Origin: an uncultured Actinomycetes bacterium | GTDB taxonomy: Bacteria; Actinomycetota; Thermoleophilia; Gaiellales; F1-60-MAGs149 | NCBI GenBank assembly: GCA_963779685.1 | Contig: CAVZZG010000001.1 | Coordinates: 411,458-475,457, forward strand | Length of the DNA stretch: 64,000 nucleotides | Reading direction: 5' to 3' | Shown here: positions 4,845 to 43,247 of the stretch, piece after piece | Numbering within the stretch: position 1 is the first letter of the stretch | How the letters are laid out: every line of letters begins with the position of its first letter | Translations under genes and position numbers: made by a program | The notes under the pieces: model-generated | Seen by the model: the letters and a program-made list of their open reading frames with translations, nothing else | Databases searched by the model: none | Told to the model about the DNA's origin: nothing

Positions 4845-6247
4845 CCGCGCCGGATCCGGGTTCGTTCCGCGATCCGACGGGCCAGGTAGCCGTCAGCGAC
4901 GGCCGCGTGCTGCGCCTGCTGAGCGAGCGGGGGGCCGCTGACGCTCGTGCCGCCCTTGCGGCGCCGAGCGTGTCGGCCTCGATCGAGCGGGGCGATGTGG
5001 TCGGCACTGCGTGGGTGGAGCCACATGACGGGCCGGCGGAGCTTGCGGATGGTGCGGCGGTCGCGGCGGTGCTCGAGCATCCCCGGCTGCCGTTCGTCTC
5101 CTACCCGTACGAGTGGACGTTCGCGATGCTGCGCGACGCTGCATTGCTGACGTTGCGCCTGCTGCGCGAGACGGCGGCCGACGGCGTCTCGCTCAAGGAC
5201 GCGACCCCGTACAACGTGCAGTTCCGCGGTACGCGGGCGACCTTCATCGACGTCGGCTCCTTCGAGCCCGCGGCGGCGTCGGACCCGTGGTTCGGGCGGG
5301 ATCAGTTCTACCAGCTCTTCCTCTATCCCCTCATGCTCCAGGCCTATGCCGGCGCGGCCTTCCAACCCTGGCTGCGCGGGTCGCTCGAAGGCATCACCGC
5401 GCCGGAGCTCGACGGGATCCTGGCCGGCGCTCACGTCGGCTGGCGCAAGGGGCGGCTCGTGCACGTCAAGGCGACGGCCGCCGCGGCGCGCAAGCTGCGG
5501 ACGCGGACCGAGGCCGTCGAGGTCGAGACGCGCCGGCGCGGCATGTCCCGCGAGCTGCTCGTCGCGCAGTGGAAAGGGATCGAGCGCCTGGTGACGGGGC
5601 TCGAGTGGGAGGAGTCGCGCAGCGTCTGGAGCGAGTACGGCGCTCGCGGCCACTATGCGGACGGCGAGCTCCACGCGAAGGAGTGCTTCGTCGGGCGCGT
5701 GGCCGGCGCGCGGCAGCGGTCACTTGCCTACGACCTCGGCGCCAACGACGGCCGGTTCGCGCGGATCGCGCTCGAGCACAGCGACTACGTCATCGCCGCC
5801 GACGCCGATCGCCTCGTCGTCGACCGGCTGTACCGCGAGCTTCGCGCCCAGGGCGAGGAGCGCATCCAGCCACTGGCGGTCGATCTCGCCGATCCGTCGC
5901 CGGGGCTCGGCTGGGGCGGGGTCGAGCGGACATCGTTCACCGATCGCCAGCGGCCCGACCTGGTGCTCTACCTGGCGGTCGTCCACCACCTTGCGATCGG
6001 CCGTAACGTGCCCGTGGCGATGCAGCTCGACGCGTTGGCCCGGCTGGGCGGCGAGGTCGTGTTCGAGTTCCCGACCGAGGACGACCCCAAGGTGCGCGAG
6101 CTCCTGCTGCAGAAGCGCACCGGCCTGTTCGACGGCTACCGGCTCGACCACGTCGACGCCGCCGTCGCGGAGCGCTTCGAGGTACGGGCTCGTGAGGTGC
6201 TCGACGGCGGAACCCGCGTCCTCTACCACCTGTCCCCGTGGCGCTGA
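4841..6247 (+). CDS. two-domain protein, class I SAM-dependent methyltransferase-like (function unknown)
   Basis: GTG 4841 inside track ORF 4565..6247. N-terminal DPGSFRDPTG..FVSYPYEWTF..LKDATPYNVQF..FIDVGSFE domain plus a C-terminal Rossmann-like part (AYDLGANDGRF). Annotation recalled from similar proteins, not verified. Confidence 0.6.
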   Translation: MTAPDPGSFRDPTGQVAVSDGRVLRLLSERGAADARAALAAPSVSASIERGDVVGTAWVEPHDGPAELADGAAVAAVLEHPRLPFVSYPYEWTFAMLRDAALLTLRLLRETAADGVSLKDATPYNVQFRGTRATFIDVGSFEPAAASDPWFGRDQFYQLFLYPLMLQAYAGAAFQPWLRGSLEGITAPELDGILAGAHVGWRKGRLVHVKATAAAARKLRTRTEAVEVETRRRGMSRELLVAQWKGIERLVTGLEWEESRSVWSEYGARGHYADGELHAKECFVGRVAGARQRSLAYDLGANDGRFARIALEHSDYVIAADADRLVVDRLYRELRAQGEERIQPLAVDLADPSPGLGWGGVERTSFTDRQRPDLVLYLAVVHHLAIGRNVPVAMQLDALARLGGEVVFEFPTEDDPKVRELLLQKRTGLFDGYRLDHVDAAVAERFEVRAREVLDGGTRVLYHLSPWR

Positions 6248-8365
6248 TGGACGGCGGGCGACCACGGCGTATCGGCCTGCGCGAGTTCGGGTTGTCGACC
6301 GCCGGGATCATGGGAGCGGCGACGGCCGGCGTGGCGCAGCCGCTGCTCGACCTGTACGGGAAGAACGCCACCCTGTTCTCCGCGGCCAAGCTGCATGGCC
6401 GGTCGGTCGTGGAGTTCGCGTTGCTGGTGGCCCTCCTGGTGCCCGTCGGGTGGGTCGTTGTGGCCGTGCCGCTGGTGTTCCTGCCGCGGGTGTTCCGGAT
6501 CTGGCGGGCGATCGGAATCGGCATCGGGTTCGGGCTCGCGGCGCTCGTGTTCCTGAACTCGCACGACGTGCTCGCCCGCTACGAACTTCCCGCCGCGGCC
6601 CTGATCGCCATCGCGTCGGCCCTCCTGTACGAACGTCACCGGGCGCTGCGATCGGTCGCCGCGCTCCTGGGTCTGCTCGCTCCGGTGACCGTCGGCCTGT
6701 TCCTCGGCGCGTTCCTCGGTCGCGCACATCGCGTGGTCGGCGTCGGGCCGGAACGTGGCGATCCCGGCCGGCCAGATCAAGCACAAGCCGACCATCGTCT
6801 GGGTCGTGATGGACGAGACGAACCTCGCGATGCTGCTCGACCAGCAGCATCGCATCGACGCGTCGCGGTATCCACATCTCGCCGCGCTGGCGGCGACCTC
6901 GACGTGGTACCGCAACGCCGTCGGGATCGACAGCTTCACGCCGCGGGCGGTGCCCGGTCTGCTGGCCAGCCGCGACGGTGCGGGGTCGGCCTGGCCGACA
7001 CCCGCCGACTACCCGGTGAACCTGTTCTCGTTGCTGGCCGCCGCCTACCGGCTCGACGCCTTCGAGCCGGTGACCGACCTCTGTGCCGCCCCCTCGTGCC
7101 TGCCGAACGCCTTCCACGGCACCCGCTCGCTTCGGGCCTTCCTGCGCGACGCCTCGATCGTCTACGCCACCATGGCGCTGCCGTCGTCGCTCTCATCCCA
7201 CCTCCCGTCCATCACCAACAGCTGGGGCGGGTTCGCATCGACTGGCGCCGCGCCGCAGCAGGGCACCGTTCACCTCGATGCCAACCACATCACCCCGCTC
7301 GCGAAGCTCTTCGCGGCGCCGCACGGCCCGCAGCGGGAGCTCGCGACGGCCGCCGACTTCACCAGCCGGATCCGGCCCGGCGAGGCGCCGACGGTGCACT
7401 TCCTGCACATCCTGCTGCCGCACCGGCCCTGGCGGCTGACGCCAGACTCGTCCGACTACGGCGAGGACCACGGCACGCAGGCGCTGCCGAGGGCTCCGAA
7501 GGACCTCTGGCTGGCGCAGGATGAGGCGGCCCGGTTTGCGCTTCAGGCCGGTGCGGCCGACGCGATGATCGGCCGGCTGGTCGATCGGCTGCGCGCGACG
7601 AAGCTATGGCAGGGCACGTTCCTGGTCGTCACCGCCGATCACGGCATCAACTTCGAGCCCGGGATGACGGCGCGCCAGCCGGCCTCGGACGGCACCCTCG
7701 ACGAGCTGTACCGGGTGCCGTTGATCGTGCATGCGCCCGGGCAGGCGACCGGTGCCGTGTCCGACGCGCCGGCCTCGACCGAGGACATCCTGCCGACGTT
7801 GCTCGGCGTGCTGGGCGCGCCGCCCGTCCCGGGGGCTGCGGGACTGGACCTCGCGCAGCCGGTGCCGGCAGGTCGCAAGCGGCTGGTGTGGTCGGCCGGC
7901 AAGTCGTATCCCTTCCCGCCGGGCACGGCGACGATCGGGTCGCGCGTCGCCACCTATGCGCGGTGGTTTCCCCCCGCGGCCGCCGGGTGGGACCGGATCT
8001 TCGCGCGCGGCCCCTATCGCGGCCTGTTCGGTCGGGCCGTGGCGGCGGGTGCGGGTACCGCCGCCGGCTACCGGGTGCGGGTGCAGTTCCCGAATCCCCG
8101 CAAGCCGGTCGCGGACCAATCGGTCGGCGTCGTGCGGGTGGTCGTCGGCGCGCCGGCCGGCGCGCGTGTTGGGGACGGCACCGTGGTGGTCGCATCGGGT
8201 GGGCGGGTGGTCGGCTTCCTTGGCGGTGCGGGCGGGTCGACCGGCAGCGGCATCACTGTCGAGGGCGTGGTCGACTGGCGTCACGCCGGCGCGCCGGGCG
8301 GGTTGCAGTTCTACCTCGCCAGCGGCCCGGCCTCCGCTCCACTCCTCCAGCGCATCTCCGGGTAG
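6247..8365 (+). pseudogene. membrane-anchored sulfatase / alkaline-phosphatase-fold (LTA-synthase-like) enzyme, frame-broken as assembled
   Basis: Frame 1 (track 6238..7524) encodes hydrophobic helices up to about 6720 and then turns Arg-rich. Frame 2 (track 6755..8365) carries KPTIVWVVMDETN.. and ..VVTADHGINFEPG.. of the sulfatase fold. Frame 2 is closed by TGA 6686-6688, so a frame change between 6689 and about 6757 is needed. ATG 6247 overlaps the previous stop (TGATG). Confidence 0.65.
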
Positions 8366-8373
8366 CGGGACCG

Positions 8374-8748
8374 TCAGGCGGGGTCCTCGCCGAGAAACGT
8401 CTGGTCGAGCGTGCCCCGCTCGTGCGCCGAGACGACGAGCAGGGGCCGGTCGCCGACGTTGCGAAATCCGTGGCGCGTGCCGGGCGGGACGACCAGCAGC
8501 TGCTCGGGTTCGAGCTCGATCACCTCGTCGCCGACCGTCCACCGCCCGTGGCCGTCGAGGAGCACGAACGTCTCGGCGTACGGGTGGACGTGCAGCTCGA
8601 CGAACGCGCCGGGGGGTGTGCGCACCACGAACAGCGACACGTCCACGCCAGCCCGCGGATGGCCCTCGAAGAGCGCGGCCGTCGGACTCACCAGCAGGTC
8701 GGACAGGGCGAGGCGGACGGCACGGGGCGGATCGGGTGGTGTCGGCAT
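8374..8748 (-). CDS. cupin domain protein
   Basis: ATG 8748 inside track ORF 8374..9414, with GGGAGGG upstream. Cupin motifs ..FVELHVHPYAETFVLLDGHG.. and ..PPGTRHGFRN.. Confidence 0.8.
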   Translation of the reverse strand: MPTPPDPPRAVRLALSDLLVSPTAALFEGHPRAGVDVSLFVVRTPPGAFVELHVHPYAETFVLLDGHGRWTVGDEVIELEPEQLLVVPPGTRHGFRNVGDRPLLVVSAHERGTLDQTFLGEDPA

Positions 8749-8801
8749 GGGCCCTCCCAGCGGTCGTCGGTGAGGGACGATCTTAGCCCTGCCGAAACCG
8801 G

Positions 8802-10891: not shown

Positions 10892-11024
10892 GAGCGATGC
10901 CCTTCCATGACCATCATCCACCGCGGCGTGCCCGCGGCATCGGGGAGTGCGCGGACCGGTGCTACGGTGAATCGCGCAGTTCCGCCGCCCCTCCGCACGT
11001 GCCCTCTACCGCCGTGGTGAATCC

Positions 11025-12416: not shown

Positions 12417-12430
12417 CCACGACAGGGGGT

Positions 12431-13042
12431 CTGTGGTGGGCGCCGCGGCGGCGACCCTGGTGGATCGCGGTCCTGTTTGCGATCGGTTCGACCTGCTTCC
12501 TGGTCGGGCCGATCCCGGGCGTCGTCGAGCTCGTCGGCTCGGCCGTGGACGCGGCCATCTTCTTCGTCGGCTCGATCTTCTTCACGGTGGCGGCGGCGCT
12601 CCAGGTCCTGGAGACCCGGCGAAGCGGCGGCAGACTCGACCGCTGGAGCAGCGCCGTCCAGTTCGCCGGCACGCTGGCGTTCAACGTCACCACGTACCGG
12701 GCGCTCCATGTTTCCCTGAACGACGTGTCGTACGATCGCCTCGTCTGGGCGCCCGATGCGGTCGGCTCCGTCTGCTTCCTCGTCTCGGGCGTCGTCGCCT
12801 ACCTGGCCGTAGCCGGCGCCACCCTTCGACGGCCGGCCGGGCGGCTTCCGGAATGGCGGATCGCCGTGGTGAATCTCGTCGGCTGCGTCGCGTTCGGGAT
12901 CGCGGCGATCGCGTCCTACGTCGTGCCCGCCAAGGGCAGCGCCCTCGATCTTGCCGCTGCGAACGTGACGACGGCCTTCGGCGGCCTCTGCTTCCTCGTC
13001 GGCTCGGTCCTGCTCCTGCCCGTGCCCGCGACCGAGGGCTGA
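12431..13042 (+). CDS. YrhK-like multi-TM membrane protein (start codon unresolved)
   Basis: Frame 2 is open from 12395. WWIAVLFAIGSTCFLVGP..FFVGSIFFTVAAALQ..GTLAFNVTT..GSVCFLVSG..GCVAFGIAAIA..FGGLCFLVGS are repeated YrhK-type helices. The track ORF starts only at GTG 12545, which would delete the first helix. 12431 is a CTG, and no ATG/GTG/TTG exists in frame between 12395 and 12545. Confidence 0.55.
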   Translation: MWWAPRRRPWWIAVLFAIGSTCFLVGPIPGVVELVGSAVDAAIFFVGSIFFTVAAALQVLETRRSGGRLDRWSSAVQFAGTLAFNVTTYRALHVSLNDVSYDRLVWAPDAVGSVCFLVSGVVAYLAVAGATLRRPAGRLPEWRIAVVNLVGCVAFGIAAIASYVVPAKGSALDLAAANVTTAFGGLCFLVGSVLLLPVPATEG

Positions 13043-22828: not shown

Positions 22829-23239
22829 GTGGCTCCGATCGGCACGCGGCAGGACCCCTGGCTGCTGAAGACCCCGAGCGGCGAGCTCGGAGTTCCATGG
22901 CCTACCGCGACGAGACGCTCGACCCGCCGGCGCTCGTCGTGCGACGTCGGCAAGACCGAGCTGCGCTACCAGCTGCGCTGCATCGACGACCTGCACGCCA
23001 TGCTCGAAGGCGCACGGCGACTGGATGCCGCTCGGCAGCGCCGACGAGCAGAAGCCCGCCGCCGACGGCACGGTCGAGGCGTGGGCGCGCTCGGCCGACA
23101 ACCCGGTCGGCGGCTGGTACGGGCTCAAGAAGGGCCTGCGCGGCCGCTTCGCGAATGTACGTGCCGCCCGTGCTCGAAGCAGCTCGGGCTGGCCGAGGTC
23201 GAGCACAACCCGCGCAACAACCGCATGCGCGCCCTCTGA
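22829..23239 (+). pseudogene. conserved small protein (C-terminus ..NPVGGWYGLKKGLRGRF..LGLAEVEHNPRNNRMRAL) broken by five frame changes
   Basis: Consecutive peptide segments lie in frames 2,1,2,3,1,2: VAPIGTRQDPWLLKTPSGEL / SSMAYRDETLDPPALVV / CDVGKTELRYQLRCIDDLHAML / KAHGDWMPLGSADEQKPAADGTVEAWARSADNPVGGWYGLKKGLRGRFA / MYVPPVLEA / LGLAEVEHNPRNNRMRAL*. Breaks lie near 22889, 22940, 23006, 23154 and 23182. No other strand or frame is credibly coding here. Confidence 0.7.
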
Positions 23240-25399: not shown

Positions 25400-26167
25400 G
25401 TGATCGAGGTCCATCACCGGGAATCGGGGCCTCGCGACGCGCCCGCGATCGTGCTCTCCAACTCGCTCGGCGCGACCCTCGCGATGTGGGACCGGCAGGC
25501 CCCGGAACTCGCCCAGCGCTACCGGGTGGTGCGCTACGACCTGCGTGGCCATGGCGGGTCGCCCGTCCCGGCCGGCCCGTCGACGATCGCCGACCTGGGC
25601 GAGGACCTGCTCGCGCTGCTCGACCGGCTCGACATCGAGCGGGCCGCGCTGGTGGGCGTGTCGATCGGCGGCATGGTGTCGCTCCATGCGGCCGCCGTGG
25701 CGCCCGAGCGGGTGTGGTCGCTCGTGCCCTGCTTCACGGCGGCGTACCTCGGCCCGGCCGAGACCTGGCGCGAGCGGGCCGGCCTCGTCCGCGCCGAGGG
25801 CACCGAGGCCGTGGCGGATGCGGTCATCGCGCGGTGGTTCACGCCCGCCTTCGCAGCCCGCGAGCCCGCCCTGGTGGCCGCCACCCGCGCCGCCATCGCG
25901 GCAACCGACCGGAACGGCTATGCGAGCCTGTGTCACGTCATCGAGACCATGGACCTGCGTGGGTCGCTGGCCGCCATCTCCGCCCCGACCCTCGTGATCG
26001 CCGGCGCTCTCGACCCGTCGATCCCGCCCGAGCATGGCCGCCTGGTCGCCGACGGCATCGCCGGCGCGCGCTTCGCCGTGCTCGAGGGGGCGGCGCATCT
26101 CGGTAACATCGAGTGCGCAGACGCCTTCAACAGGCTGCTCCGTGACCACCTGGAGGCCACCGCGTGA
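25400..26167 (+). CDS. alpha/beta hydrolase, 3-oxoadipate enol-lactonase-like
   Basis: Track ORF (GTG). GVSIGG nucleophile elbow, ..APTLVIAGALDPSIP.., AAHLGNIE. Overall PcaD-like. Confidence 0.75.
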   Translation: MIEVHHRESGPRDAPAIVLSNSLGATLAMWDRQAPELAQRYRVVRYDLRGHGGSPVPAGPSTIADLGEDLLALLDRLDIERAALVGVSIGGMVSLHAAAVAPERVWSLVPCFTAAYLGPAETWRERAGLVRAEGTEAVADAVIARWFTPAFAAREPALVAATRAAIAATDRNGYASLCHVIETMDLRGSLAAISAPTLVIAGALDPSIPPEHGRLVADGIAGARFAVLEGAAHLGNIECADAFNRLLRDHLEATA

Positions 26168-27322
26168 GCGCGACCGAGGACCTCGCCGCCGGCTTCGACC
26201 ACAACGACCACGAGATGCGCCTGAACTGCGCGCGAGGTCTACGGCCGCCTCCGCGAGACCTGTCCGGTGTTCCACAGCGACGTCTGGGGCGGATTCTGGG
26301 TCGCCAGCCGGTACCAGGACGTGTACGAGGTCGGCCGCGATCCCGACCGCTTCGCCTCGGGCCGGGGCGTGATGCTGCCACCCGTCGGCCACGGGCGTCC
26401 CCTGCGGCCGATGGACTCCGACCCGCCGGAGCACGCGGCCTACCGCGAGCTGATGCTCGCACGTTTCGCGCCCGCCGCCGTCGTCGGGATGGAGGACGAT
26501 GTCCGCGCGCTCGCGGCCTCGTTGCTCGACTCGGTGGCCGGCCAGGGCCACGCCGACCTGTACGAGGTGCTGGCCAAGCCGCTGCCGATGCTCGTCATCA
26601 CCCGGCTGCTCGGCATCGAGCGCGACGACGTGTTCTGGGAGTGGACGGACGTGCTCATCTACGGGCGCGTCGACGGCACCGACCCGGCCCGCATCGTCGA
26701 GGTCGCCGACGCCCTCTACGGCTTTCTCGCCGACCAGGTCGAGGACCGCAGGCGCCATCCCGGAGGCGACCTGATCTCGCTGCTGCTGCAGGGCTCGGTC
26801 GGGGAGCGGTCGTTCACGGCCGAGGAGATCCTCGACCTCTGCTTCTTCCTCCTCATCGCCGGGCTCGAGAACACCGCCTTCGGCATTCGCGCGACGCTGC
26901 GGCATCTGGCCGTCCGGCCCGACCACCGGGCCGCCGTCCTCGCCGACCCGGCGCTGGTGCCGAACGTCGTCGAGCAGTCGCTGCGGCTGTACTCGCCCGT
27001 CACGGCGCTCGCCCGCTGGGCGACGCGCGACACCGAGGTCGCGGGCCGGCGGATCCGCGCCGGCGAGCGGGTGCTGCTGCTGTTCGGCTCGGCCAACCGC
27101 GACGGTGCGGTGTTCGCCGACCCCGACGAGTTCCATCTCGATCGGCGCGACGGCCGGCACGTCGCGTTCGGGATCGGACCGCACCGCTGCGTGGGATCGA
27201 ACCTCGCGCGTCTCGAGCTGCGGGTCGCGGTCGAGGAGACCCTGCGGCGCATCCCGGGCTACCGGCTGGCCGGCGAGGATCCCGGCTGGGGCGTGGCCGG
27301 CCCCCTGGAGGTGGTGTGGTGA
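26164..27322 (+). pseudogene. cytochrome P450, frame-broken near N-terminus as assembled
   Basis: GTG 26164 overlaps the previous stop (GTGA). The first 21 codons (VSATEDLAAGFDHNDHEMRLN) are in frame 1. The rest (AREVYGRLRETCPVFHSDVWGGFW...) is in frame 2, which is closed by TGA 26222-26224 and has its first start only at 26267. Heme loop FGIGPHRCVGSNLA, ExxR (EQSLR), I-helix AGLENT. Confidence 0.85.
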
Positions 27323-30956: not shown

Positions 30957-32775
30957 CTAGACGGGCTCGGCGACCTCGTCGCGCGCGACGAGCGCCGCGT
31001 AGCGGCCGGCAGCGGCGAGCAACTCGGCGTGCGTGCCGCGCTCGACGATGCGGCCCTGGTCGAGCACGACGATCTGGTCGGCGTCGCGGATGGTCGAGAG
31101 GCGATGCGCGATGGCGATCGTCGTGCGTCCCGCCGACAGCTCGTCGAGGGCCTCCTTGACGGCCCGCTCCGTCTCGGCGTCCAGCGCGCTCGTGGCCTCG
31201 TCCAGCACCAGCACCCGTGGGTTCGCGAGCACCGTGCGGGCGATCGCGAGGCGCTGCTTCTCACCGCCCGAGAACCGGTGGCCGCGCTCGCCGACGACGG
31301 TGTCGTAGCCGTCCGGCAGGCGCGCGATCGTGTCGTGCACCTGCGCCGCGCGGCAGGCCGCCTCGATCTCCGCGTCGGTCGCCTCCGGGCAGGCGAAGCG
31401 GAGGTTCTCGCGGACGGAGGCGTGGAAGAGGTAGGTCTCCTGCGACACGACGCCGACCGTGCCGGCCAGCGAGGCGAACGTCAGGTCGCGCACGTCGACC
31501 CCGTCGATCGACACGCTGCCCTCCGTGACGTCGTACAGGCGGGCGATCAGGTAGCCGAGCGTGGTCTTGCCCGAACCGGTCTCGCCGACGATGGCGATGT
31601 GCGCCCCGGCCGGGGCATCGAGGTCGATGTCCTGGAGCGTCGGGCGCTCGCCGCCCTCGTAGGAGAACTGCACGTCGCGGAGCCGGACCTCCCCGCGCAC
31701 GCTGGCCGGGTCGAGCGTCCTCGCACCCTCGCGCTCGGCGATCTCGACCGGCAGGTCGAGGTACTCGAACACGCGGTCGAACAGGGCGAGCGAGGTCTGC
31801 ACGTCGAGACTCACCGAGAGCAGCTGGCCGACCGGGAAGAACAACCGCGTCTGCAGGGTCGTGAACGCGACCAGGGTGCCGATCGAGATCGCGGAATGCC
31901 CGTTCGACGTCGTCCAGCCGGCGAACCAGTAGACCGCTGCGGGCATGATCGCGAAGGTCATCTGGATGGTCGCCATCACCCACCGGCCGGCCATCCGCTG
32001 CTGTACCTCGAGGCCCGCCAGGCGCTCCGATTCGCCCTCGAAGCGGTTGGCCAGCTCGTCGCCGCGAGCGAACGTCTTGCCGAGCAGGATGCCGCTGACG
32101 GACAGCGACTCCGTCACCAGCGCGGACATGTCGGCCATCGTCCGCTGCCGGGTCGTCGTGATCTCCCGACGCTCGGCGCCGACCCGCCGGGTGAGCAGGA
32201 CGAACACCGGCAGCAGGGCGAACGCGAACAGCGCCAGCCGCCAGTCGAGCACGACCATCGCCACCGCGGTGGCGAGCACGGTCGTCACGTTCGAGGCGAT
32301 CGAGGTGGCCGTGGAGGTGACCACGGTCTGGACGCCGCCGATGTCGTTCGAGATGCGCGACTGCACCTCGCCGGTGCGGGTGCGGGTGAAGAAGGCCAGC
32401 GACAGGCGCTGGAGATGGCGGTAGACGGCCGCCCGGAGATCGTGCATCACTCGCTGGCCGACGATGTTCGAGAGGTAGGTCTGGGCCACGCCCAGCACCC
32501 CGCCGATGACCGCGATCGCGATCATCCCCGCGACGTCGATGTTGAGGCGGGTCATGTTCCTGGGTCGGGATCGCGACGTCGAGCACGTCCCGCAGCAGGA
32601 ACGGCGAGATCATGCTGATCAGGGCGGCCAGCACGATCAACCCCAGCACCAGGGCGAGTCGCAACCGGTAGGCCCGGAACAGCCCGACCACCCGGCGCAG
32701 GTTCTGGCGGCGCACGGTGCGGTCGGCCGGGCGCTCGGGCCGCTCGGGCGGGTTGAAGGTGCCGTGCCTGGACAT
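30957..32775 (-). pseudogene. ABC exporter, fused permease/ATPase (MsbA/MdlB type), frame-broken as assembled
   Basis: The N-terminus and TM1 (MSRHGTF..FRAYRLRLALVLGLIVLAALISMISPFLLRDVLDVAIPTQE) are in the frame starting at ATG 32775. The remainder (MTRLNIDVAGMIAIAV... Walker A GETGSGKTT, FSGGEKQR, VLVLDEAT) is track ORF 30957..32555. The frames differ by one base near 32556-32562. Confidence 0.85.
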
Positions 32776-32804
32776 GACCGGAGCGTATCGGCTACGTTTG
32801 CCGC

Positions 32805-34187
32805 ACGGACGCCGCGGATGTCACCGGCACGAGCGCGACCGCCCTGGCGGCCGCCATCCGGAAGCGCGAGCTTTCCGCCGTCGAGGTGCTGTAAGCCCAT
32901 GTCGCGCGGATCGCGCAGGTCAATCCGGCGCTGAACGCGATCGTGGCCGAGCGCTTCGGGCAGGCCCGGATCGAGGCCGCCGCGGCCGACGCGGCGGTTG
33001 CCGAGGGCGGGGATCTGCCGCCGCTGCTCGGCGTGCCGGTGACGATCAAGGAGGCGATCGCCTGCCAGGGGATGCCGTGGACGTCGGGGTCGCGGCTCCT
33101 CGCCGGCCAGGTCGCGGACCACGATGCGCCGGCGGTCGCCGGACTGCGCCGCGCCGGCGCGATCGTCCTCGGGGTCACGAACACCCCCGAGTTCTGCTGC
33201 TACTACGACACCGACAACCTGGTCTACGGCCGGACGTGCAACCCGCACGATGCGGCCCGCACACCGGGCGGCTCGTCGGGCGGCGAGTCCGCCGCCATCA
33301 GCGCCGGCCTCTCGCCCCTCGGCCTCGGCTCGGATCTCGGCAGCTCCGTTCGGCAGCCGGCAGCCTGGACGGGCATCTTCGGCCTCAAGCCGAGCGCCGG
33401 GCTGGTGTCGCTGCGCGGGCACCGACTGAGCTCGCCGCCCTCGTTCACGCGGTTCGGGTCGATCGGGCCGATGGCCCGGACGGCCGATGACCTCGCCGTC
33501 GCCCTGCGCGCCATCGCCGTGCGCCCGTACTTCGGTCCGACAGCCGAGCGATTCCCGATCGCCGTCTACGAGGATGATGGCCTGCAGCCCGTCGCGGCGA
33601 GCCTGCGTGCTGCGGTACGGCGCGCGGCGGATGCGCTGGCCGACGCCGGCCACGACCCCGCCGACGCGGCGCCGCCGCACGCGGGCGACGTCCGCCGCAT
33701 CTTCGACATCATGCTCCTGACGGAGGGCGCCGTCGCGTTCGCGCCGCAGTGGGCCGGTCGTGGGCACGAGATGTCGCGGTACGGCGCCGGCTTCGCCTCG
33801 GCCCTCGCCGGCTACGAGCCCGATCTCGGCGCGTACCTCGCCGCAGGCATGGAACTGGCCGGAATCGAGGCGGCCGTCGACGCCTTCTTCGAGCGCTATC
33901 CGATTGCCATCTGCCCGGTCGTCCCCGTCACCGCGCCGATCGCGGCCGAAGGGATCACGACCATCGACGGACGACCGGCGAACCCCGGCGGCAAGATGAC
34001 GCTGGCCACGTTCCCGAACGCGGTCGGTCTGCCCGCCGCGAGCGTCCCGGCCGGCCGGGACGCCGACGGCCTGCCGTTGTCGGTGCAGGTGATCGGCCGC
34101 CGTGATCACGACGGCGACGTCATCGCCGTCGCGCGCGTGCTCGAGGCCGCCCTTGGCGGGTGGGTCGAGCCTGCTCGGGCCTGCTAG
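32805..34187 (+). pseudogene. amidase (amidase-signature family), in-frame TAA and no canonical start
   Basis: Frame 3 reads (T)DAADVTGTSATALAAAIRKRELSAVEVL-TAA(32892-32894)-AHVARIAQVNPALNAIVAERFG.., then GVPVTIKEAI, GGSSGGESAA, GSDLGSSVRQPA (Ser-cisSer-Lys). Frame 3 is open only from 32778 and has no ATG/GTG/TTG before the TAA; 32805 is an ACG. The track ORF starts at GTG 32943. Confidence 0.8.
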
Positions 34188-35918: not shown

Positions 35919-37880
35919 TTGGCTTCCCTGTCCGACCATGCGACGAGTTCTGCCTTCACCCGGCTGCTTCCGGGCGGTCTCGACCTGGCCGTCTTCTCGC
36001 ACGCCGCCACCGGGGTCGACCTCTGCCTGCCCGACCCCGACGGCCGGGAGCGGCGCATCGCGCTCGAGCGCGATGGCGATCTGTGGCGTGGTCACGTACC
36101 GGGGATCGAGCCGGGCCGGCGCTACGGTCTGCGAGCCTACGGGGCGTATGACCCGGCCCGTGGCGACCGTTTCGATCCGGCACGGATCCTGATCGACCCC
36201 CATGCCCGGGCGGTGGCCGGCGTCTGGAGCGTCGCACTGGCCGATTCCCCGGGCGACACCGGCCCCCGGCCGCGGCGGCCGTGGGCGGACACGGTGATCT
36301 ACGAGGCGCACGTCCGCGGACTCACGCGCCTCGACCGCAGGATCCCGGCCTGGCAGCGCGGCACCTACGCGGCGCTCGGGCACCCGGCCGTGATCGCCGA
36401 CCTGCGCGCGCTCGGCGTGACGGCGATCGAGCTGATGCCGGTGGCCGAGTTCCGGAGCGAGGCTTCGCTGGTCGCCCGCGGCCGCACCAACTACTGGGGG
36501 TACAGCCCCGTCGCCTTCCTCGCACCCCACGCCGCGTACGCCGCGTCCGGGCCCTTCGGCGGTCAGGTGGAGGAGTTCCGGGCGGCCGTGCGGTCGCTGC
36601 ACGAGGCGGGGATCGAGGTGCTCGTGGACGTCGTCTTCAACCATACGGGCGAGGGCGGTCCCGACGATCCGGCCTGGTCGCTGCGCGGCCTCGACAACCG
36701 GGCGTACTATCGCGCGGATCCCGGCGACCCGTCGCGCTACCGCGACGTCACGGGTACCGGCAACACGGTCGACGCCGGCCACCCGGCGGTGATCGCGCTC
36801 GTGATGGACGCGCTCCGGCACTGGACGACGGTGCTCGGCGTCGACGGCTTCCGCTTCGACCTCGCGGTCACCCTCGGCAGGGCCGAGGACGGCTTCGACC
36901 CGCGGGCGCCGCTGCTGACCGCCATGGCGACCGACCCGGTGCTCGCGGGCGTGAAGCTGATCGCCGAGCCGTGGGACCTCGGTGGCGGCGGGTATCGCCT
37001 CGGCGGCTTCCCGCCGCCCTTCGCCGAGTGGAATGGCGAGTTCCGCGACCTGACGCGCGAGTTCTGGCGCGGGCGGGCGACCACCGGCGAGCTGGCCCGG
37101 GTCTTCACCGGGTCCTCGGATACCTTCGCGCCCTCCGGCCGCGGCCCGCTCGCGAGCATCAACTTCGTCGCCAGCCACGACGGCTTCACGCTCCGCGACA
37201 TCGTCTCCTACGACCACAAGCACAACCTGGCCAACGGCGAGGACAACCGGGACGGCGACGACCACAACCGGTCCTGGAACTCCGGGCGGGAGGGCGAGAC
37301 CGACGACGCCGCCGTGCTCGAGTTGCGCCGCCGTCGTGTGCGCGGGATGCTCGCGACGGTGCTCCTGTCGACCGGCGTGCCCATGTTCCACGCCGGCGAC
37401 GAGCACGGGCGCACGCAGCATGGCAACAACAACACCTACTGCCAGGACTCCGCGCTGACGTGGCTCGCGCCGGGCGGCGATGACGACCTCCGTGCCCTTG
37501 CCGCGACGCTGATCGAGCTGCGGGCCGCCCACCCGGTACTCCGCCGGGCCCAGTTCTTCACCGGCGACGCCGGGAATGGCGCGGCGACCGACATCCGCTG
37601 GTTCGCGCCCGACGGCCGCGAGATGGGCGAGATGTGGTGGCAGGCGGCAGAGGTACGCACCGTCGCGCTCCACCTCGACGGCGGCGCGGTGGCTGCGCCT
37701 GCGGACACCCTGTTCATCGCCTTCCACGCCGGCGACGATCCGGTCGTCGTGACCCTCCCGGCGTCCCTCGAGGGGTACGAGCTGCTGCTGGACTCGGCCG
37801 ATCCGGGCCGCCTGGAGCCTGAGCTCCACGAGCAGGTGGAGGTCGGACCGTGGTCGGTCGTCATGCTCCGGGCTCGCTGA
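35919..37880 (+). CDS. glgX: glycogen debranching enzyme
   Basis: Track ORF (TTG start; N-terminus uncertain). ..DTVIYEAHVRGLT.., NYWGYSP, VDVVFNHTGEG, GVDGFRFDLA, IAEPWD, FVASHDGFTL. Confidence 0.85.
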   Translation: MASLSDHATSSAFTRLLPGGLDLAVFSHAATGVDLCLPDPDGRERRIALERDGDLWRGHVPGIEPGRRYGLRAYGAYDPARGDRFDPARILIDPHARAVAGVWSVALADSPGDTGPRPRRPWADTVIYEAHVRGLTRLDRRIPAWQRGTYAALGHPAVIADLRALGVTAIELMPVAEFRSEASLVARGRTNYWGYSPVAFLAPHAAYAASGPFGGQVEEFRAAVRSLHEAGIEVLVDVVFNHTGEGGPDDPAWSLRGLDNRAYYRADPGDPSRYRDVTGTGNTVDAGHPAVIALVMDALRHWTTVLGVDGFRFDLAVTLGRAEDGFDPRAPLLTAMATDPVLAGVKLIAEPWDLGGGGYRLGGFPPPFAEWNGEFRDLTREFWRGRATTGELARVFTGSSDTFAPSGRGPLASINFVASHDGFTLRDIVSYDHKHNLANGEDNRDGDDHNRSWNSGREGETDDAAVLELRRRRVRGMLATVLLSTGVPMFHAGDEHGRTQHGNNNTYCQDSALTWLAPGGDDDLRALAATLIELRAAHPVLRRAQFFTGDAGNGAATDIRWFAPDGREMGEMWWQAAEVRTVALHLDGGAVAAPADTLFIAFHAGDDPVVVTLPASLEGYELLLDSADPGRLEPELHEQVEVGPWSVVMLRAR

Positions 37881-38648
37881 ACTCGCGCCTGAATGCGAGC
37901 GTGGGGATCGTGGGGCCGGCCGGGTCGTATTCGAGTCCGATCGCCCCGGTGTAGCCGACGACGTCGAGTGCCGCCACGAGACCGTGGAGATCGGTCGTGC
38001 CGGTTCCCGGCGCTCCCCGGCCGGGGCAGTCCGCGAACTGGACGTGGCCGATCAGCGGCCCGGCTGCGGTGGCCTCTGCGACCGGATCGAGGCCACTCAT
38101 CGCGACGTGGTAGGCGTCGTAGAGCAGGCGCAGCTCCGGCTCGCCGACGCGGGCGAGCACTGCCGCCACGTCGCGTGGCGTGGGCGTGAGGTAGCCGGGC
38201 ACGTCGCGATCGTTGATCGGCTCGACCACGATGGCGATCCCATGCTTCCGGGCCCGCGGTGCAATCTCGGTCAGGCGCTCCACGACGGTCTCCAGCTGCG
38301 ACTGCCGGCCGCGCCCGGCCGGTCACGGCCGACCAGCACGTTGATGCACGACGCGCCGATGCGCGCGCCGAGCTCGAGTGCCTGATCGACCGCCTCGAGC
38401 GCCTCGCTGCGGCGTCCGGGATCGTTCAGGAAGCCGCGTTCGCCGGTCGCGATGTCGCCCCCGTACGCGTTCAGGAGGGCCACGTCGAGACCCTCCTCCA
38501 TGACGCGGTCGCCCCACGCGACGGCCAGGTCGTCCGGCCACCACGACTCGATGTGGGTGAACCCCGCCGCGCGGGCCGCCGCGGGCCGCGCGAGCACGTC
38601 GTACTCGCCGAACAGCATCGACAGGTGCGCCGACCAGACCGGCATCAC
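37861..38648 (-). pseudogene. hydroxypyruvate isomerase-like TIM-barrel (xylose isomerase-like) protein, frame-broken as assembled
   Basis: The N-terminal half is track ORF 38271..38648 (..CINVLVGRDRPGA then nonsense). The C-terminal half is track ORF 37861..38283, preceded in its own frame by GRQSQLETVV ERLTEIAPRARKHGIAIVVEPIN... That frame is closed by TGA 38323-38325, so a frame change must lie between about 38300 and 38322. Confidence 0.75.
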
Positions 38649-41116
38649 GCGCGCACGGCGAGGCCGAACGCCCTGCCGTCGGCCAGGTCGGGATGGGCGG
38701 GCAGGACGCGGATCTCGACCTCGAGCCGTCCGGGCGGCGTGGCGAACGTCGCCCGGAACGGGATGTCGCCCGGCGCCGCGTCGCCCGGGACGAGGTCATG
38801 GATGCTCGCCTCACCCCGACGATGGACGACGGCCTGGACGCTGACCTCGTCCGGGCGCAGGTCTCCGAGCGCCACGGTCGCCTCGACCCGCAGCCGGTCG
38901 CCGTCCGGCTCGGCGCTCGAGGCGACGATCGCCACCCCGGGCCAGGCTGCGGTCGCCCGGACGCGGAATGCTCCGAGCCGGCGGGCGGCCGCGTGGCCAT
39001 CGGCGGCGAGGCGCCGGCTCTCGGTGGCGGCGGGCCGGTAGCGCTGCTCGACGTAGTCGCGCACCATGCGGCTCGCCAGCAGGTCGGGCGCCAGCGTGGC
39101 AAGCGTGTGGCGCACCATCCCGAGCCAGCCCGCCCGGTCGTCGTAGAACCGCGGGGCGACCACCTGCTCCAGCAGATCGTAGAGCGCCGTCGCCTCGAAG
39201 TCGTCGCGGCGCTGCGGCTCGACCGAGCCGTCATCGGCCGAGGGTATCGCCCAGCCATTGGCGCCGTCGTAGCACTCGTCCCACCAGCCGTCGAGGATCG
39301 AGAGGTTCAGGGCGCCGTTGAGCGCGGCCTTCATGCCGCTCGTACCGCAGGCCTCGAATGGCCGCAGCGGGTTGTTCAGCCAGACGTCGACCCCGGCCAC
39401 GAAGCCGCGCGCCACGGCCATGTCGTAGTCGGAGATGAGCGCGATGCGGTGCCGGACCTCGGTGCGAACCGCGAACGCGCCGAGCTCGGCGATCAGCGCC
39501 TTGCCCTCGGCGTCGGCCGGGTGGGCCTTGCCGGCGACCACGAGCTGGATCGGCCGCTCCGGGTGCAGCAGCAGCCGCTCCAGCCGCGCCGGGTCGCGCA
39601 GCATCAGCGTCAGCCGCTTGTACGTCGGAACGCGCCGGGCGAAGCCGATGGTCAGCACGTGGGGATCGAGCGCGTCGTCGATGAATGCGAGCTGGTCGCC
39701 GCGGAGCCCGCGTGCCGTCCAGGCCCGGCGCTTGCGCCGGCGCACCGCCTCCACGAGCCGCGCTCGCGACGCGTCGAGCGCGTCGTTCAGATCCTCGTCC
39801 GAGACATCGCGGAGCGAGGCGAAACCGTGGCCCTGCTGACCGTAACCGTCGCCGAGCCGCTCGCGGTATATGGCCTCCATGTCCGGCCCCACCCAGGTGT
39901 CGGCGTGCACGCCGTTGGTGATGTGGTCGATCGGCACCTCGTCCCGGGCGAGGCCCGGCCAGAGCTCCGCGAACATCCCGCGCGACACGTCGCCGTGCAG
40001 GCGGGAGACCCCGTTCACCCGCGACGCCAGCCGGATGCCCATGACCGCCATGTTGAAGACGGACGGATCGCCGTCCGGCTCGGCGCCGAGCGCGAGCAGC
40101 CGCTCCACGCCGAGCGCGCCGGCCAGGCCCGCGGCACGCGCATACGACGCCACCAGCTCGCGCGGAAACCGGTCGATGCCGGCCGGCACCGGCGTGTGCG
40201 TGGTGAAGACGGTGCCCGCGCGGACGACCTCGATCGCGGCATCGGCATCCAGCCCCTGCTCCTCGGTCAGCGCCCGGATGCGCTCGAGGCCCATGAATCC
40301 CGCGTGGCCCTCGTTGGTGTGGAACACCTCGGGGGCGAACCCGCAGACCGCGAGCGCGCGGACGCCGCCGATGCCGAGCAGGAGCTCCTGTCGCAGCCGG
40401 TGTTCGCGGTCGCCCCCGTACAGCTGGTCGGTGACGCTGCGGTCGGCCGGGGTGTTCTCGGGGACGTCGGCGTCCAGGAGCAGGAGCGGCACGCGGCCGA
40501 CGTCGACGCGCCAGATACGGGCCTGCAGCGTCGCGTCGGGGAGCGCGATCTCGATCCGTGCCGGCTCCCCGCCCGGTGTCGTGGCCGGCTCGACCGGCAG
40601 CGCCGACGGGTCGAGGTCGGCGAACACCTCGCGCTGCTCACCCGAGGCGGTCAGCACCTGGCGGAAGTAGCCCTGCCGGTAGAACAGGCCTACCGCGACG
40701 ACCGGCACACCGAGATCGCTCGCCGCCTTCAGGTGGTCGCCGGCCAGCACGCCGAGTCCGCCCGAATACTGCGGGAGCGCGTTGCCAAGGCCGTACTCGG
40801 GGGAGAAGTACGCGACCGCACGGGGCGTGTCGGCGCCCAGGGTCTCGTACCAGGCGCCGCCCTGGACGCGGGCGGCCACCCGTTGGACTGCCGCATCCAC
40901 CCGGGCGACGAAACCCGCATCGCCGGCCAGGGCGGCGAGCCGGTCGGGCGGCGTCGCCGCGAGCTGCACCAGCGGACCGCCCGGCTCGTCCTGCGAGAGC
41001 TCGGCGAAGATCGATGCGATCTGGCCATCCCAGGAAGCCGACACGTCGCGGGCCAGCGCCGCGAGCGGCGCGAGCGGAGGCGGCAGGTGGGGGAGGATGG
41101 TGAGGCGGCTCGGCAT
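38645..41116 (-). CDS. glgP: alpha-glucan (glycogen/maltodextrin) phosphorylase, actinobacterial type
   Basis: ATG 41116 inside track ORF 38645..41983. YFSPEYG, GGLGVLAGDHLK, HTNEGHAGF, ITNGVH, ACGTSGMKAALNG (PLP Lys). Confidence 0.9.
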   Translation of the reverse strand: MPSRLTILPHLPPPLAPLAALARDVSASWDGQIASIFAELSQDEPGGPLVQLAATPPDRLAALAGDAGFVARVDAAVQRVAARVQGGAWYETLGADTPRAVAYFSPEYGLGNALPQYSGGLGVLAGDHLKAASDLGVPVVAVGLFYRQGYFRQVLTASGEQREVFADLDPSALPVEPATTPGGEPARIEIALPDATLQARIWRVDVGRVPLLLLDADVPENTPADRSVTDQLYGGDREHRLRQELLLGIGGVRALAVCGFAPEVFHTNEGHAGFMGLERIRALTEEQGLDADAAIEVVRAGTVFTTHTPVPAGIDRFPRELVASYARAAGLAGALGVERLLALGAEPDGDPSVFNMAVMGIRLASRVNGVSRLHGDVSRGMFAELWPGLARDEVPIDHITNGVHADTWVGPDMEAIYRERLGDGYGQQGHGFASLRDVSDEDLNDALDASRARLVEAVRRRKRRAWTARGLRGDQLAFIDDALDPHVLTIGFARRVPTYKRLTLMLRDPARLERLLLHPERPIQLVVAGKAHPADAEGKALIAELGAFAVRTEVRHRIALISDYDMAVARGFVAGVDVWLNNPLRPFEACGTSGMKAALNGALNLSILDGWWDECYDGANGWAIPSADDGSVEPQRRDDFEATALYDLLEQVVAPRFYDDRAGWLGMVRHTLATLAPDLLASRMVRDYVEQRYRPAATESRRLAADGHAAARRLGAFRVRATAAWPGVAIVASSAEPDGDRLRVEATVALGDLRPDEVSVQAVVHRRGEASIHDLVPGDAAPGDIPFRATFATPPGRLEVEIRVLPAHPDLADGRAFGLAVRA

Positions 41117-41128
41117 AGTTCGCTGCGG

Positions 41129-43247
41129 ATGAGAGCAGACCGCACGGTACGCGATGATCTCCTGCGACTTACCAGCGGGGCCCATCACGACCCGCATCGC
41201 CTGCTCGGGCCGCACGCGGCCGGCGATCGCCTGACCATCCGCGCATGGCAGCCGGGGGCGACCGCCGTCTCGGTCGTGACGGAGCAGCGGACGCTGCCCA
41301 TGGAGCGCATCGGCGCCGATCTCTGGGCCGTCGTGCTCCGCCGCCGGCGGGTGCCGTCGTACCGGTTCGCCGTCGAGCGGAGCGACGGGATCGAGCTTCT
41401 GGACGACCCGTATCGCTTTCCGCCGTCGGTCGGCGAGCTCGATCTGCACCTGATCGGCGAGGGTCGTCATCTCCGCCTGTGGGAGGCGCTCGGCGCCCGG
41501 CCGGCCGAGGTCGCCGGCGTCGCCGGGGTCGCGTTCGCCGTCTGGGCGCCCTCCGCCACCGGTGCCGCGGTCTTCGGCGACTTCAACGGCTGGGATACCA
41601 CCCGCCACCCGATGCGGTCGCTCGGCTCGTCCGGCGTGTGGGAGCTGTTCGTGCCCGGCGTGGCTCGCGGTCAGCTGTACAAGTTCGCCATCAGGGCCGC
41701 CGACGGCACCGTCAGCCTGCGTGCCGATCCGCTTGCGCGGCGGGCCGAGATGCCACCGGCTACGGCGTCGCGGGTCGAGCGGTCGGACTACCTGTGGGGC
41801 GATGCCGTCTGGCTCGACGGCCGCGGCGAACGCCAGTCGGTACAGGCGCCGATCTCCGTCTACGAGGTGCACCTGGGGTCGTGGCGCCACGGCCTCGACT
41901 ACCGCCGGCTGGCCGAGGAGCTCCCCACCTACGTTGCGAGCCTGGGCTTCACCCACGTCGAGCTGATGCCGGTCATGCAGCACCCGTTCGCCGGTTCGTG
42001 GGGCTATCAGGTGAGCGGGTACTACGCGCCCGACAGCCGGCTCGGCTCACCCGACGACCTCCGCCACCTCATCGACCACCTCCACCGGGCCGGCATCGGC
42101 GTGCTGCTCGACTGGGTGCCCGGGCACTTCCCGCGCGACGAGTTCGCCCTCGCCCGCTTCGACGGTTCCGCGCTCTACGAGCACGAGGATCCCCGGCGCG
42201 GGGCGCATCCCGACTGGGGCACGCTCGTCTTCAACTACGCGCGCAACGAGGTGCGCAACTTCCTGGTGGCGAACGCGCTGTACTGGATCGAGGAGTTCCA
42301 CGCCGACGGGCTTCGCGTCGACGCGGTCGCCTCGATGCTCTACCTCGACTACTCCCGCGCACCCGGCGAGTGGCTGCCGAACGCCTACGGCGGGAACGAG
42401 AACCTCGAGGCGGTCGCGTTCCTGCGGGAGCTGAACGCCGAGGTCTACGGACGTCATCCCGGCGTGATGATGGTGGCCGAGGAGTCCACCGCGTGGCCGG
42501 GCGTGTCGCGCGCGGTGCACGAGGGCGGGCTCGGCTTCGGGTTCAAGTGGAACATGGGCTTCATGCACGACACGCTGTCGTACTTCGGCCGCGACCCGGT
42601 GCACCGCCGGCACCACCACGACGAGCTCACGATGCCGATGATGTACGCCTACAGCGAGAACTTCCTGCTGCCGGTCTCGCACGACGAGGTCGTCCACGGC
42701 AAGGGCTCGCTGTACGCGCGCATGCCCGGCGACGACTGGCAGCGGCGTGCGAACCTCCGTGCGTACCTCGCCTGGATGTGGGCCCACCCGGGCAAGAAGC
42801 TCCTCTTCATGGGGTGCGAGTTCGCGCAGCGGACCGAGTGGGATCACGACGCGGAACTGCCGTGGGCCGAGGCCGATGACGGCGTGCGGCGGCTGGTGGC
42901 CGACCTCAACGGCCTGCTGCGGCGGCACCCGGCGCTGCACGCCGCGGATGCCGAACCGGGCGGTTTCCGGTGGATCGACGTCGGCGGGGCCGACGAGAAC
43001 GTGGCGACCTTCCTGCGTTTCGCCGGCGACGACGTGGTCGCCTGTGCGGCGAACCTGTCGCCCGTGCCGCGCGAGCACGTGCTGCGTCTGCCGTCGGCCC
43101 GGCCCTGGCGCGAGCTGCTCAACACCGACGCCAGGCGTCTACGGCGGCAGCGGTCTGGGGAACGCGGGCGAGGTCGAGGGCGGCTCCGAGGCGCGTCTGT
43201 TGCTGCCGCCGCTGGCGGTCGTCTACCTCGCGCCGAGCCCGGCGTAG
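41129..43247 (+). pseudogene. glgB: 1,4-alpha-glucan branching enzyme, C-terminal frame break as assembled
   Basis: ATG 41129 inside the 1990-codon track ORF. DDLLRLTSGAHHDPHRLLGPH.., GVLLDWVPGHF, ADGLRVDAVASMLY, MVAEEST, SHDEVVHGK. After ..WRELLNTDA (43132) the expected C-terminus GVYGGSGLGNAGEVEG..LLLPPLAVVYLAPSPA* continues in frame 3 to TAG 43245-43247. The original frame instead runs on antisense through glgA. Confidence 0.85.

Follow-up and report, generated by a model that had tools for sequence, protein, structure and literature searches.

Single-base frame breaks in conserved genes of an uncultured Gaiellales genome very probably arose in the assembled consensus

The textbook nanopore error is the deletion of a base within a homopolymer, and frameshift errors in long-read assemblies are reportedly the topic of the proovframe preprint (10.1101/2021.08.23.457338). 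Collapsed alleles generate indel errors, and with them apparent frameshifts, in long-read assemblies (PMC8445201). Indels in nanopore consensus sequences likewise produce frameshifts, and polishing still helps below ~40x coverage (PMC9262707). Modification motifs particular to a lineage give rise to systematic errors in nanopore data, mostly mismatches and not insertions (PMC10687267).

Here we analysed a stretch of 64,000 nucleotides (the window) from an uncultured bacterium of the Gaiellales (assembly GCA_963779685.1, contig CAVZZG010000001.1, positions 411,458 to 475,457), in which an earlier note had listed at least 11 disabling lesions in seven genes. Every lesion on that list is present in the deposited sequence, and the tally now extends to at least 13 lesions across eight conserved genes.

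Frame breaks in the window

Frame switches were located by tblastn with intact relatives, Pfam coordinates and a codon-LLR Viterbi path. The affected genes are as follows.

6706-6712, plus strand: one extra base, frame +1, in a membrane-anchored sulfatase-fold gene (~6247-8365)
12433-12463, plus strand: probable extra base in a YrhK-like gene (to 13042), between a Shine-Dalgarno sequence with GTG start and the conserved domain
22829-23239, plus strand: DUF6855 gene with six extra single bases, net frame restored
26233-26236, plus strand: one extra base in a cytochrome P450 gene (26164-27322), between ..MRLNCA and EVYGRLRETCPVFHS
32553-32565, minus strand: one extra base in an ABC exporter gene (30957-32776), at motif CAGGAACATG
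32892-32894, plus strand: in-frame TAA in an amidase gene (~32808-34187), canonical start also missing
38311-38315, minus strand: one missing base in a hyi-like (hydroxypyruvate-isomerase-like) gene encoding a xylose isomerase-like TIM barrel (37861-38648)
43133-43136, plus strand: one extra base near the 3' end of glgB (~41201-43247)

By type, the lesions comprise 11 extra bases, one missing base and one in-frame TAA, besides the missing amidase start. The earlier impression that most would be cured by removing one base was sound, as extra bases make up 11 of the 12 indels. Orthologues of six of the broken genes are single open frames in relatives.

In the sulfatase-fold gene, homologues from relative G001 align with residues 100-301 on 6100-6705 and with residues 304-851 on 6713-8356 in the next frame (tblastn), leaving 7 nt for 2 residues at 6706-6712. 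The Viterbi path puts the switch at 6717/6718, the Pfam Sulfatase match falls in the downstream piece, and identity to intact relatives is 57%. P450 orthologues (70-80% identity) align over 26161-26232 and then from 26237 in the next frame, with 4 nt covering one residue of a gene that matches Pfam p450; the frame change previously noted is present, at 26233-26236 and not at 26227. Toward the end of glgB, 65-70% identical to intact relatives, the G001 homologue places residues 6-692 on 41090-43132 and residues 694-731 on 43137-43226, the four nucleotides AGGC spanning one residue, and in the main piece the Alpha-amylase_C match breaks off at profile position 55 of 95.

On the minus strand, the homologue of the hyi-like gene in relative G019 matches with residues 24-131 on 38636-38316 and residues 134-264 on 38310-37918, so that 5 nt stand for 2 residues, and Pfam AP_endonuc_2 is split 2-93 / 100-236 over the two pieces. 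The context of this deletion, CCGGGCGCGGCCGGC, is G/C-rich with a GGG run. The earlier statement that no lesion lies in a run is thus not wholly correct, since the missing base of this gene falls in a short G/C run.

The ABC exporter gene, 77% identical to an intact relative, matches its G004 homologue with residues 3-74 on 32781-32566 and residues 79-604 on 32552-30975, 13 nt remaining for 4 residues. The lesion includes AGGAAC at 32556-32561 (minus strand), and in the downstream piece the ABC_membrane match opens at profile position 40. In the neighbouring amidase gene, both defects described earlier, the nonsense TAA and the lost start, are present, with conserved sequence on either side of the TAA. 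Five amidase homologues align straight across the stop codon, which faces Ala or Arg (tblastn), and a codon listing from the upstream stop to the conserved N-terminus contains no ATG, GTG or TTG. The Pfam Amidase match (7-443 of 445, 1e-85) starts just past the TAA, and the rest of the gene is undamaged. Several amidase paralogues occur in the genome.

The suspected start problem of the YrhK-like gene proved real. Pfam YrhK covers residues 24-73 of its stop-to-stop frame, and the earliest in-frame start, 12545, falls within that domain, while a Shine-Dalgarno sequence (AGGGGG) followed by GTG GTG lies in the -1 neighbouring frame. Together, the start inside the domain and the initiation signals in the adjacent frame point to a further extra base near 12440-12463.

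The most heavily affected gene encodes a DUF6855 protein. Its extra bases lie at two sites near 22889 and then at ~22940, 23006, 23154 and 23182, each a 1-nt insertion in the window by DNA alignment against four relatives, and three-frame translation follows the path 1>2>0>1>2>0>1. Five frame changes had been read here; the shifts are present, and there are six extra bases, two of them near 22889. The gene is intact in nine relatives (tblastn), its middle piece shares 82-94% protein identity with relatives from other genera, DNA identity to the nearest relative is 88%, and PF21619 covers positions 2-132 of 132 in a relative's protein. An RNA gene (RNase P, tmRNA) at 22829-23239 was considered and rejected: Rfam and ARAGORN return nothing in the window, and the gene encodes the DUF6855 protein.

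Genome-wide breaks and a recurrent hexamer

The genome-wide lesion rate and the sister-genome comparison proposed in the earlier note were both obtained with one ab initio frame-tracking HMM, run at strict and relaxed settings on all genomes compared. The assembly (four contigs, 4.26 Mb, 72% G+C, completeness estimate 94%) contains 289 (strict) to 508 (relaxed) breaks, or 0.068-0.119 per kb. The same HMM gives 0.010-0.023 breaks per kb in a finished one-contig relative and 0.27-0.52 in a three-contig, 61%-complete relative. At ~0.11 breaks per kb, the window matches its genome's average and does not stand out in lesion density. A completeness of 94% in four contigs is consistent with breaks in a few percent of the marker genes. 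Within the family, several sister genomes with few contigs fare worse, at 0.3-0.5 breaks per kb; the genome studied here is the sole one for its species in the collection and the sole one of its genus in the panel of relatives.

Extra-base and missing-base breaks number 234 and 55 in this genome, 81 and 27 in the 61%-complete relative, and 2 and 2 in the finished relative. The breaks are strongly clumped: the variance-to-mean ratio is 4.2 in 50-kb bins, and 30% of the spacings between neighbouring breaks are shorter than 1 kb, where 6.6% would be expected. Contigs C2 and C3 hold 16 and 19 breaks in their first 50 kb (mean 3.4), positions 750-900 kb of contig C1 form a further hot spot, and 17 of the 18 breaks at 17-41 kb of C3 are of the extra-base type. 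Self-megablast of the assembly, run to look for alternative-haplotype contigs or multi-copy rRNA whose copies could be compared, recovered only ~1-kb repeats, with no long near-identical duplicates or alternative-haplotype contig, and a scan of metagenome contigs for the same species returned only distant relatives (<=63% amino-acid identity).

The search for a shared sequence context, also suggested earlier, revealed a signature. AGGAAC stands at 21-23 of the 234 extra-base junctions (~9%) against a background of 0.13% (p ~1e-31), and its share is 15 of 81 isolated events versus 6 of 153 clustered ones. At these junctions the true codon is GAC, as judged from the conserved motifs 'DFY' in DnaB and 'KDxIISGGENI' in acyl-CoA synthetase. 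The inserted A affects roughly 0.5% of AGGAC sites in the genome. AGGAAC is not enriched at breaks in relative G014, and this absence argues for a genome-specific systematic error. The remaining ~90% of breaks show no common motif.

Two further regularities were set aside. A sense-strand bias of the AGGAAC events, 21 versus 7 in the strict set, fell to ~2:1 and was not significant in a looser, motif-centred strand test with baseline (~22 versus 10 excess events for 4142 versus 3390 targets). CTCG as a common context, seen at four window lesions, occurs at 20-24% of breaks genome-wide versus a 28% background.

The same kind of break cuts indispensable genes elsewhere in the genome. In the single-copy rplS, Pfam L19 is split 2-89 / 88-111 over two frames at one locus. 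For secA, NCBIfam matches place PRK12904 positions 2-440 in one frame and PRK09200 positions 447-780 in the next, and no second copy was found in the genome. The main replicative polymerase gene, dnaE1, has its profile positions split 5-176 / 179-1140, with one other DnaE-type copy (~31% identical) in the genome, and in the single-copy dnaB, TIGR00665 positions 34-434 lie downstream of the break. These four breaks map to C3:76079-76089 (rplS), C3:1109942 (secA), C3:1193528 (dnaE1) and C1:201311 (dnaB).

Origin of the breaks

We conclude with high confidence that the window lesions arose as errors in the assembly's consensus, and are neither features of the organism's DNA nor products of pseudogenisation. 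Since the same single-extra-base breaks cut indispensable genes elsewhere, consensus errors almost certainly account for them, in preference to gene decay. The broken genes are moreover collinear with their intact relatives and keep 57-94% amino-acid identity to them, as the earlier observation of conserved flanking peptides had anticipated, and thus bear no sign of decay. The option ranked first in that note, insertion errors in the consensus of a long-read assembly with low coverage or mixed strains, is accordingly the one that the tests support. With its four contigs, the assembly resembles what long reads yield for metagenomes or unpolished isolates, and we infer a long-read origin. An insertion-dominated, non-homopolymer spectrum is not a textbook one, since nanopore errors are usually homopolymer deletions and modification errors mostly mismatches.

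Two error processes can be distinguished. One is scattered and sequence-specific, adding an A to AG|GAC to give AGGAAC, as in the ABC exporter gene; it may reflect a systematic fault in basecalling or polishing, possibly caused by DNA modification at the motif. The other is clustered: numerous single extra bases accumulate over a few hundred nucleotides, as they do in the DUF6855 gene, mainly in hot regions, two contig starts among them. Low coverage may underlie it, or the joint assembly of two strain variants whose alternative bases were left side by side. The earlier suggestion of collapsed strains is in this respect compatible with the clustered events. A minor class, missing bases in short G/C runs as in the hyi-like gene, would represent ordinary long-read homopolymer error. 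Every insertion in the window could be read as a pair of adjacent alternative bases, in many cases at a synonymous third position; this parse was rejected as a test for strain mixture, being too permissive and nearly always possible by chance.

Very recent genuine pseudogenisation, in which real frameshifts became fixed under relaxed selection, in a mutator background or as the population shrank, would suit the several non-essential genes affected (amidase, P450, hyi-like, DUF6855) and the one lesion that is a nonsense codon and not an indel. It is very unlikely, as the disruption of single-copy dnaB, secA and rplS, together with dnaE1, would be intolerable for a living cell, and the 4:1 insertion bias is opposite to the deletion bias of bacterial mutation that Mira, Ochman and Moran are said to have described in 2001. 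The DUF6855 gene has kept its high protein identity with other genera despite six indels in 400 nt, breaks are concentrated at contig starts, and break density follows assembly quality among relatives, being high where completeness is low. We therefore reject this option, which the earlier note had entertained.

The indel-error model gives no specific account of the amidase TAA and lost start, which may be substitution-type lesions. Neither defect is an indel and both lie within 100 nt, a pattern not expected from the insertion-error processes; this speaks for a mixture, in which artefacts predominate and a few true lesions (the amidase pair, the hyi deletion) sit in dispensable genes. Loss of the amidase could be tolerated given its paralogues, and the residual 0.01-0.02 breaks per kb of the finished relative could include true pseudogenes. 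Against this, the amidase lesions lie <=340 nt from the AGGAAC-type error of the ABC exporter, which indicates a locally error-rich patch, the remainder of the amidase is a full-length Pfam match free of further damage, and a deletion in a G/C run is typical of long-read errors; we regard the mixture as very unlikely.

A correct sequence whose breaks the organism reads through, whether by transcript editing or by a programmed +1 frameshift or hop at (C/G)AG-GAA-C and elsewhere, is the least credible explanation and close to negligible. A recurrent hexamer exactly at ~9% of extra-base junctions, essential genes included, and specific to this genome, is what speaks for it. Yet the reading frame continues unshifted across ~160-230 sense-strand AGGAAC sites, the other ~90% of breaks lack a common motif, orthologues are single-frame at the break positions in every relative examined, no slippery or hungry-codon arrangement like that of prfB is present, and six consecutive shifts within 130 DUF6855 codons are implausible for known recoding mechanisms. 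It is extremely improbable that an efficient +1 shift or hop at (C/G)AG-GAA-C keeps dnaB, dnaE1 and the ABC exporter working in spite of the additional A. In a milder variant, the AGGAAC signature would be an artefact that marks a DNA modification, new for this lineage, at AGGAC.

Consequences and comparison with known systems

With consensus error as the preferred reading, biological interest is low, the genes not being in decay, and practical interest lies in data quality. Scaled from the window, consensus errors probably split ~5-15% of the genome's genes, and unless frameshift-aware methods are applied, these records will give distorted gene calls, pseudogene counts, completeness estimates and metabolic reconstructions. 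The change from AGGAC to AGGAAC is a concrete systematic error; if it stems from DNA modification, it would also expose a methylation motif in a lineage that has not been cultured.

Unlike prfB-type +1 frameshifting, the two-frame arrangement here is not conserved in orthologues, and in contrast to genuine pseudogenes, essential genes are not spared and relaxed constraint is not seen. The AGGAC sites read as AGGAAC resemble modification-mediated errors (PMC10687267) in being a short, genome-specific motif at scattered sites, whereas in published cases nearly every motif site is hit, mainly by mismatches, and here an inserted A affects ~0.5% of the sites. With collapsed-variant artefacts (PMC8445201) the breaks share clustering at places where a high density of variants would be expected, the appearance of frameshifts in genes that are intact, and hot regions that include contig starts, where mixed-strain assemblies tend to break; they differ in that the strain mixture is deduced here, an alternative haplotype contig being absent from the assembly. 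From long-read indel errors, as surveyed by IDEEL-type tests for truncated proteins (PMC9262707), they depart in their 4:1 excess of extra over missing bases, mostly outside homopolymers. The likeness to these errors extends to single-base indels that split conserved genes genome-wide, essential ones included, to missing bases in short G/C runs, and to a density that runs inverse to completeness.

Lesions in the window

We checked each lesion by three-frame translation, Pfam and NCBIfam coordinates, and tblastn with intact homologues taken from relatives. All lesions listed in the earlier note, a reading of the sequence alone, were confirmed and located, and the window holds at least 13 in 8 genes. 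Its statement that most are repaired by deleting one base stands for the 11 of 12 indels that are extra bases, but not for the hyi-like gene, which lacks a base.

Lesions by gene (window coordinates)
6705 to 6707-6713, sulfatase-fold gene: one extra base; in tblastn, homologues from the relative G001 follow one frame to 6705 and the next from 6707-6713
22829-23239, DUF6855 gene: six extra bases, frames 1>2>0>1>2>0>1, each a 1-nt insertion relative to four relatives
26233-26236, P450: one extra base; 4 nt for a single residue between two frames (orthologues ..FDHNDHxMRxxCA/EVY...)
32553-32565, minus strand, ABC exporter: one extra base; 13 nt for 4 residues, the coding strand showing CAGGAACATG
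32892-32894, plus strand, amidase: in-frame TAA, through which five homologues align
38311-38315, hyi-like gene: one base missing; 5 nt for two residues, within CCGGGCGCGGCCGGC
43133-43136, glgB: one extra base; AGGC, 4 nt for one residue
YrhK-like gene: start problem; candidate extra base between an SD sequence with GTG start and the conserved domain

The small gene at 22829-23239, ruled out as an RNA gene, encodes a DUF6855 protein and is unbroken in 9 of 9 relatives examined. The multiple frame changes reported there are present, although they number six rather than five, and the net frame is restored by chance. The copy in the relative G010 carries an extra base of its own (column 62 of the gene's DNA alignment, A1). 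In the hyi-like gene, the Pfam AP_endonuc_2 match is divided over two pieces (2-93 and 100-236). The start problem suspected in the YrhK-like gene is real and looks like one further extra base.

The amidase has no canonical start upstream, as the note had also claimed. Divergent from the ABC exporter, it lacks a usable in-frame start, and at 32774-32777 the exporter's putative minus-strand ATG and a plus-strand ATG overlap as CATG. With three lesions in 340 nt, the short stretch separating the two genes has a local excess of errors, the TAA and missing start lying within 340 nt of the exporter error. The insertion process leaves both unexplained; they may belong to a locally poor patch or reflect genuine damage to a dispensable paralogue. 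A 560-codon ORF at 4565-6247 (plus strand; weak methyltransferase match) shows no own-frame coding signal over its first ~490 nt, and a short stretch (4611-4752) has coding scores in a different frame; its start may contain two more frame errors or encode an N-terminus of low complexity.

Frame breaks across the genome and its relatives

The assembly comprises 4.26 Mb in four contigs (C1, C2 and C3 below) with 71.6% G+C and zero Ns, at an estimated 94.35% completeness and 1.9% contamination; the window occupies C1:411458-475457. Because third-codon-position G+C is ~93%, reading frames are traceable ab initio. A 7-state Viterbi model (non-coding plus six frames), using codon log-odds learned from 591 long ORFs, recovered window switches at 6717/8, 23005/6, 26226/7, 32557/8, 38303/4 and 43132/3. 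A break was a same-strand frame change for which both stops, that of the upstream frame and the preceding one of the downstream frame, lay >=36 nt away; stop distances were clearly bimodal, with normal gene ends at <=24 nt and a second mode at >60 nt.

Frame breaks under strict and relaxed settings
This genome: strict 289 (0.068 per kb); relaxed 405-508 (0.095-0.119 per kb)
G027, finished single contig, 97% complete, 400 kb sampled: strict 4 (0.010 per kb); relaxed 0.015-0.023 per kb
G014, 3 contigs, 61% complete, 400 kb sampled: strict 108 (0.27 per kb); relaxed 0.43-0.52 per kb

This frameshift-aware count, which the earlier note had proposed, places the window (~0.11 breaks per kb, relaxed setting) at the genome average; the pattern described as window-wide is therefore present but genome-wide, not window-specific. 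The proposed sister-genome comparison found orthologues intact, and among relatives the break rate scales with the quality of the assembly. In several genomes of the window's family and order, very few contigs go together with merely 61-72% completeness; G014 (L035-L054), G010, G003, G004 and G028 are such sister genomes, with 3-30 contigs, and the group seems affected as a whole. The window's genome is the sole member of its genus in the panel, and no same-species contig occurred in the collections searched.

Consensus error versus pseudogenisation

The earlier note listed consensus errors first and offered recent pseudogenisation as a competitor. Against gene decay, breaks also occur in rplS, secA, dnaE1 and dnaB, the last three recognised among long split genes and then confirmed by NCBIfam. 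The single rplS locus divides its L19 profile (2-89 and 88-111) over two frames; secA matches PRK12904 at 2-440 in one frame and PRK09200 at 447-780 in the next; dnaE1 is split into profile positions 5-176 and 179-1140; and the downstream piece of dnaB spans 34-434. In this genome, tblastn found no second secA or dnaB copy, and the only other DnaE is a 31%-identical paralogue. Truncation of these four genes is incompatible with cell life. Two missing-base breaks (C3:76647 and C3:76776) occur a little downstream of the split rplS.

The spectrum and distribution of the breaks also oppose pseudogenisation. Bacterial mutation is deletion-biased, so the extra-base-heavy spectrum (extra:missing 234:55 here, 81:27 in G014, 2:2 in the finished genome) is technical. 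Breaks are clustered (variance/mean ratio 4.2; 30% of spacings <1 kb versus 6.6% expected) and dense at contig starts, with 16 and 19 in the first 50 kb of C2 and C3 versus a mean of 3.4; within C3:17-41 kb, 17 of 18 are extra-base. Broken genes are collinear with relatives at 57-94% identity, and their constraint is not relaxed: six real indels should have brought many substitutions, which the DUF6855 gene lacks. We therefore reject pseudogenisation, and the sequence evidence supports consensus errors, possibly with collapsed strains. The pattern is almost certainly not a real biological feature; what it offers is a caution about the quality of this genome and of its sister assemblies, together with a clue to a systematic error motif particular to this genome.

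Repeat copies of ~1.0-1.2 kb, 99.3-99.7% identical, occur at two sets of loci (C1:726388-727548 and C3:1766698-1767858; C1:306726-307772, C1:1078098-1079145 and C3:1720611-1721652). One pair differs at 6 gap positions and just 2 mismatches, a gap excess consistent with indel-type consensus errors.

The AGGAAC motif and a proposed mechanism

The shared sequence context that the note had suggested seeking emerged when k-mers near the 234 extra-base junctions were examined for enrichment. A single overwhelming k-mer, AGGAAC on the coding strand, occurs at 21-23 of them (~9% versus 0.13% background; p ~1e-31), with the Viterbi switch exactly on it. Flanking conserved motifs expose the true codon GAC and an extra A (xAG/GAC to xAG/GAAC), as in DnaB (..P(Q)DFY..) and acyl-CoA synthetase (..DRFKDVIISGGENI...). 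The class includes the window's ABC exporter lesion (32556-32561).

Examples of AGGAAC breaks
C1:201311, dnaB
C3:1193528, dnaE1
C3:805444, UvrD/PcrA-type helicase
C3:1516940, acyl-CoA synthetase

An apparent sense-strand bias in the strict set (21 versus 7 events; targets 4142 versus 3390) fell to ~2:1, not significant, once the test was centred on the motif and given a proper baseline. CTCG recurs at four window lesions but without enrichment. AGGAAC explains 15 of 81 isolated events but just 6 of 153 in clusters, which means that two processes operate, and its absence from G014 makes the signature genome-specific. This is the pattern expected of a systematic error that depends on DNA modification or is specific to the organism in some other way, modification-dependent sequencing error being the comparison case (PMC10687267); the inserted A may be the trace of a DNA modification motif or of a blind spot in the basecaller.

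From the breaks observed, with their rate, bias, clustering, motif and essential-gene matches, we infer a mechanism in which clustered insertions probably reflect low coverage or the collapse of co-assembled strain variants. Misaligned alternative bases would both survive into the consensus, an effect documented for collapsed alleles (PMC8445201). Every window insertion parses as two neighbouring alternative bases, often at a synonymous third position (CTC/CTG, GCG/GCC, GCG/GCA, CGA/CGC), a parse too permissive to serve as evidence. The AGGAC events would represent systematic basecalling or polishing error, and missing bases in G/C runs would be the homopolymer errors ordinary in long-read data (PMC9262707). 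Unlike textbook nanopore errors, however, the spectrum here is insertion-dominated and non-homopolymer.
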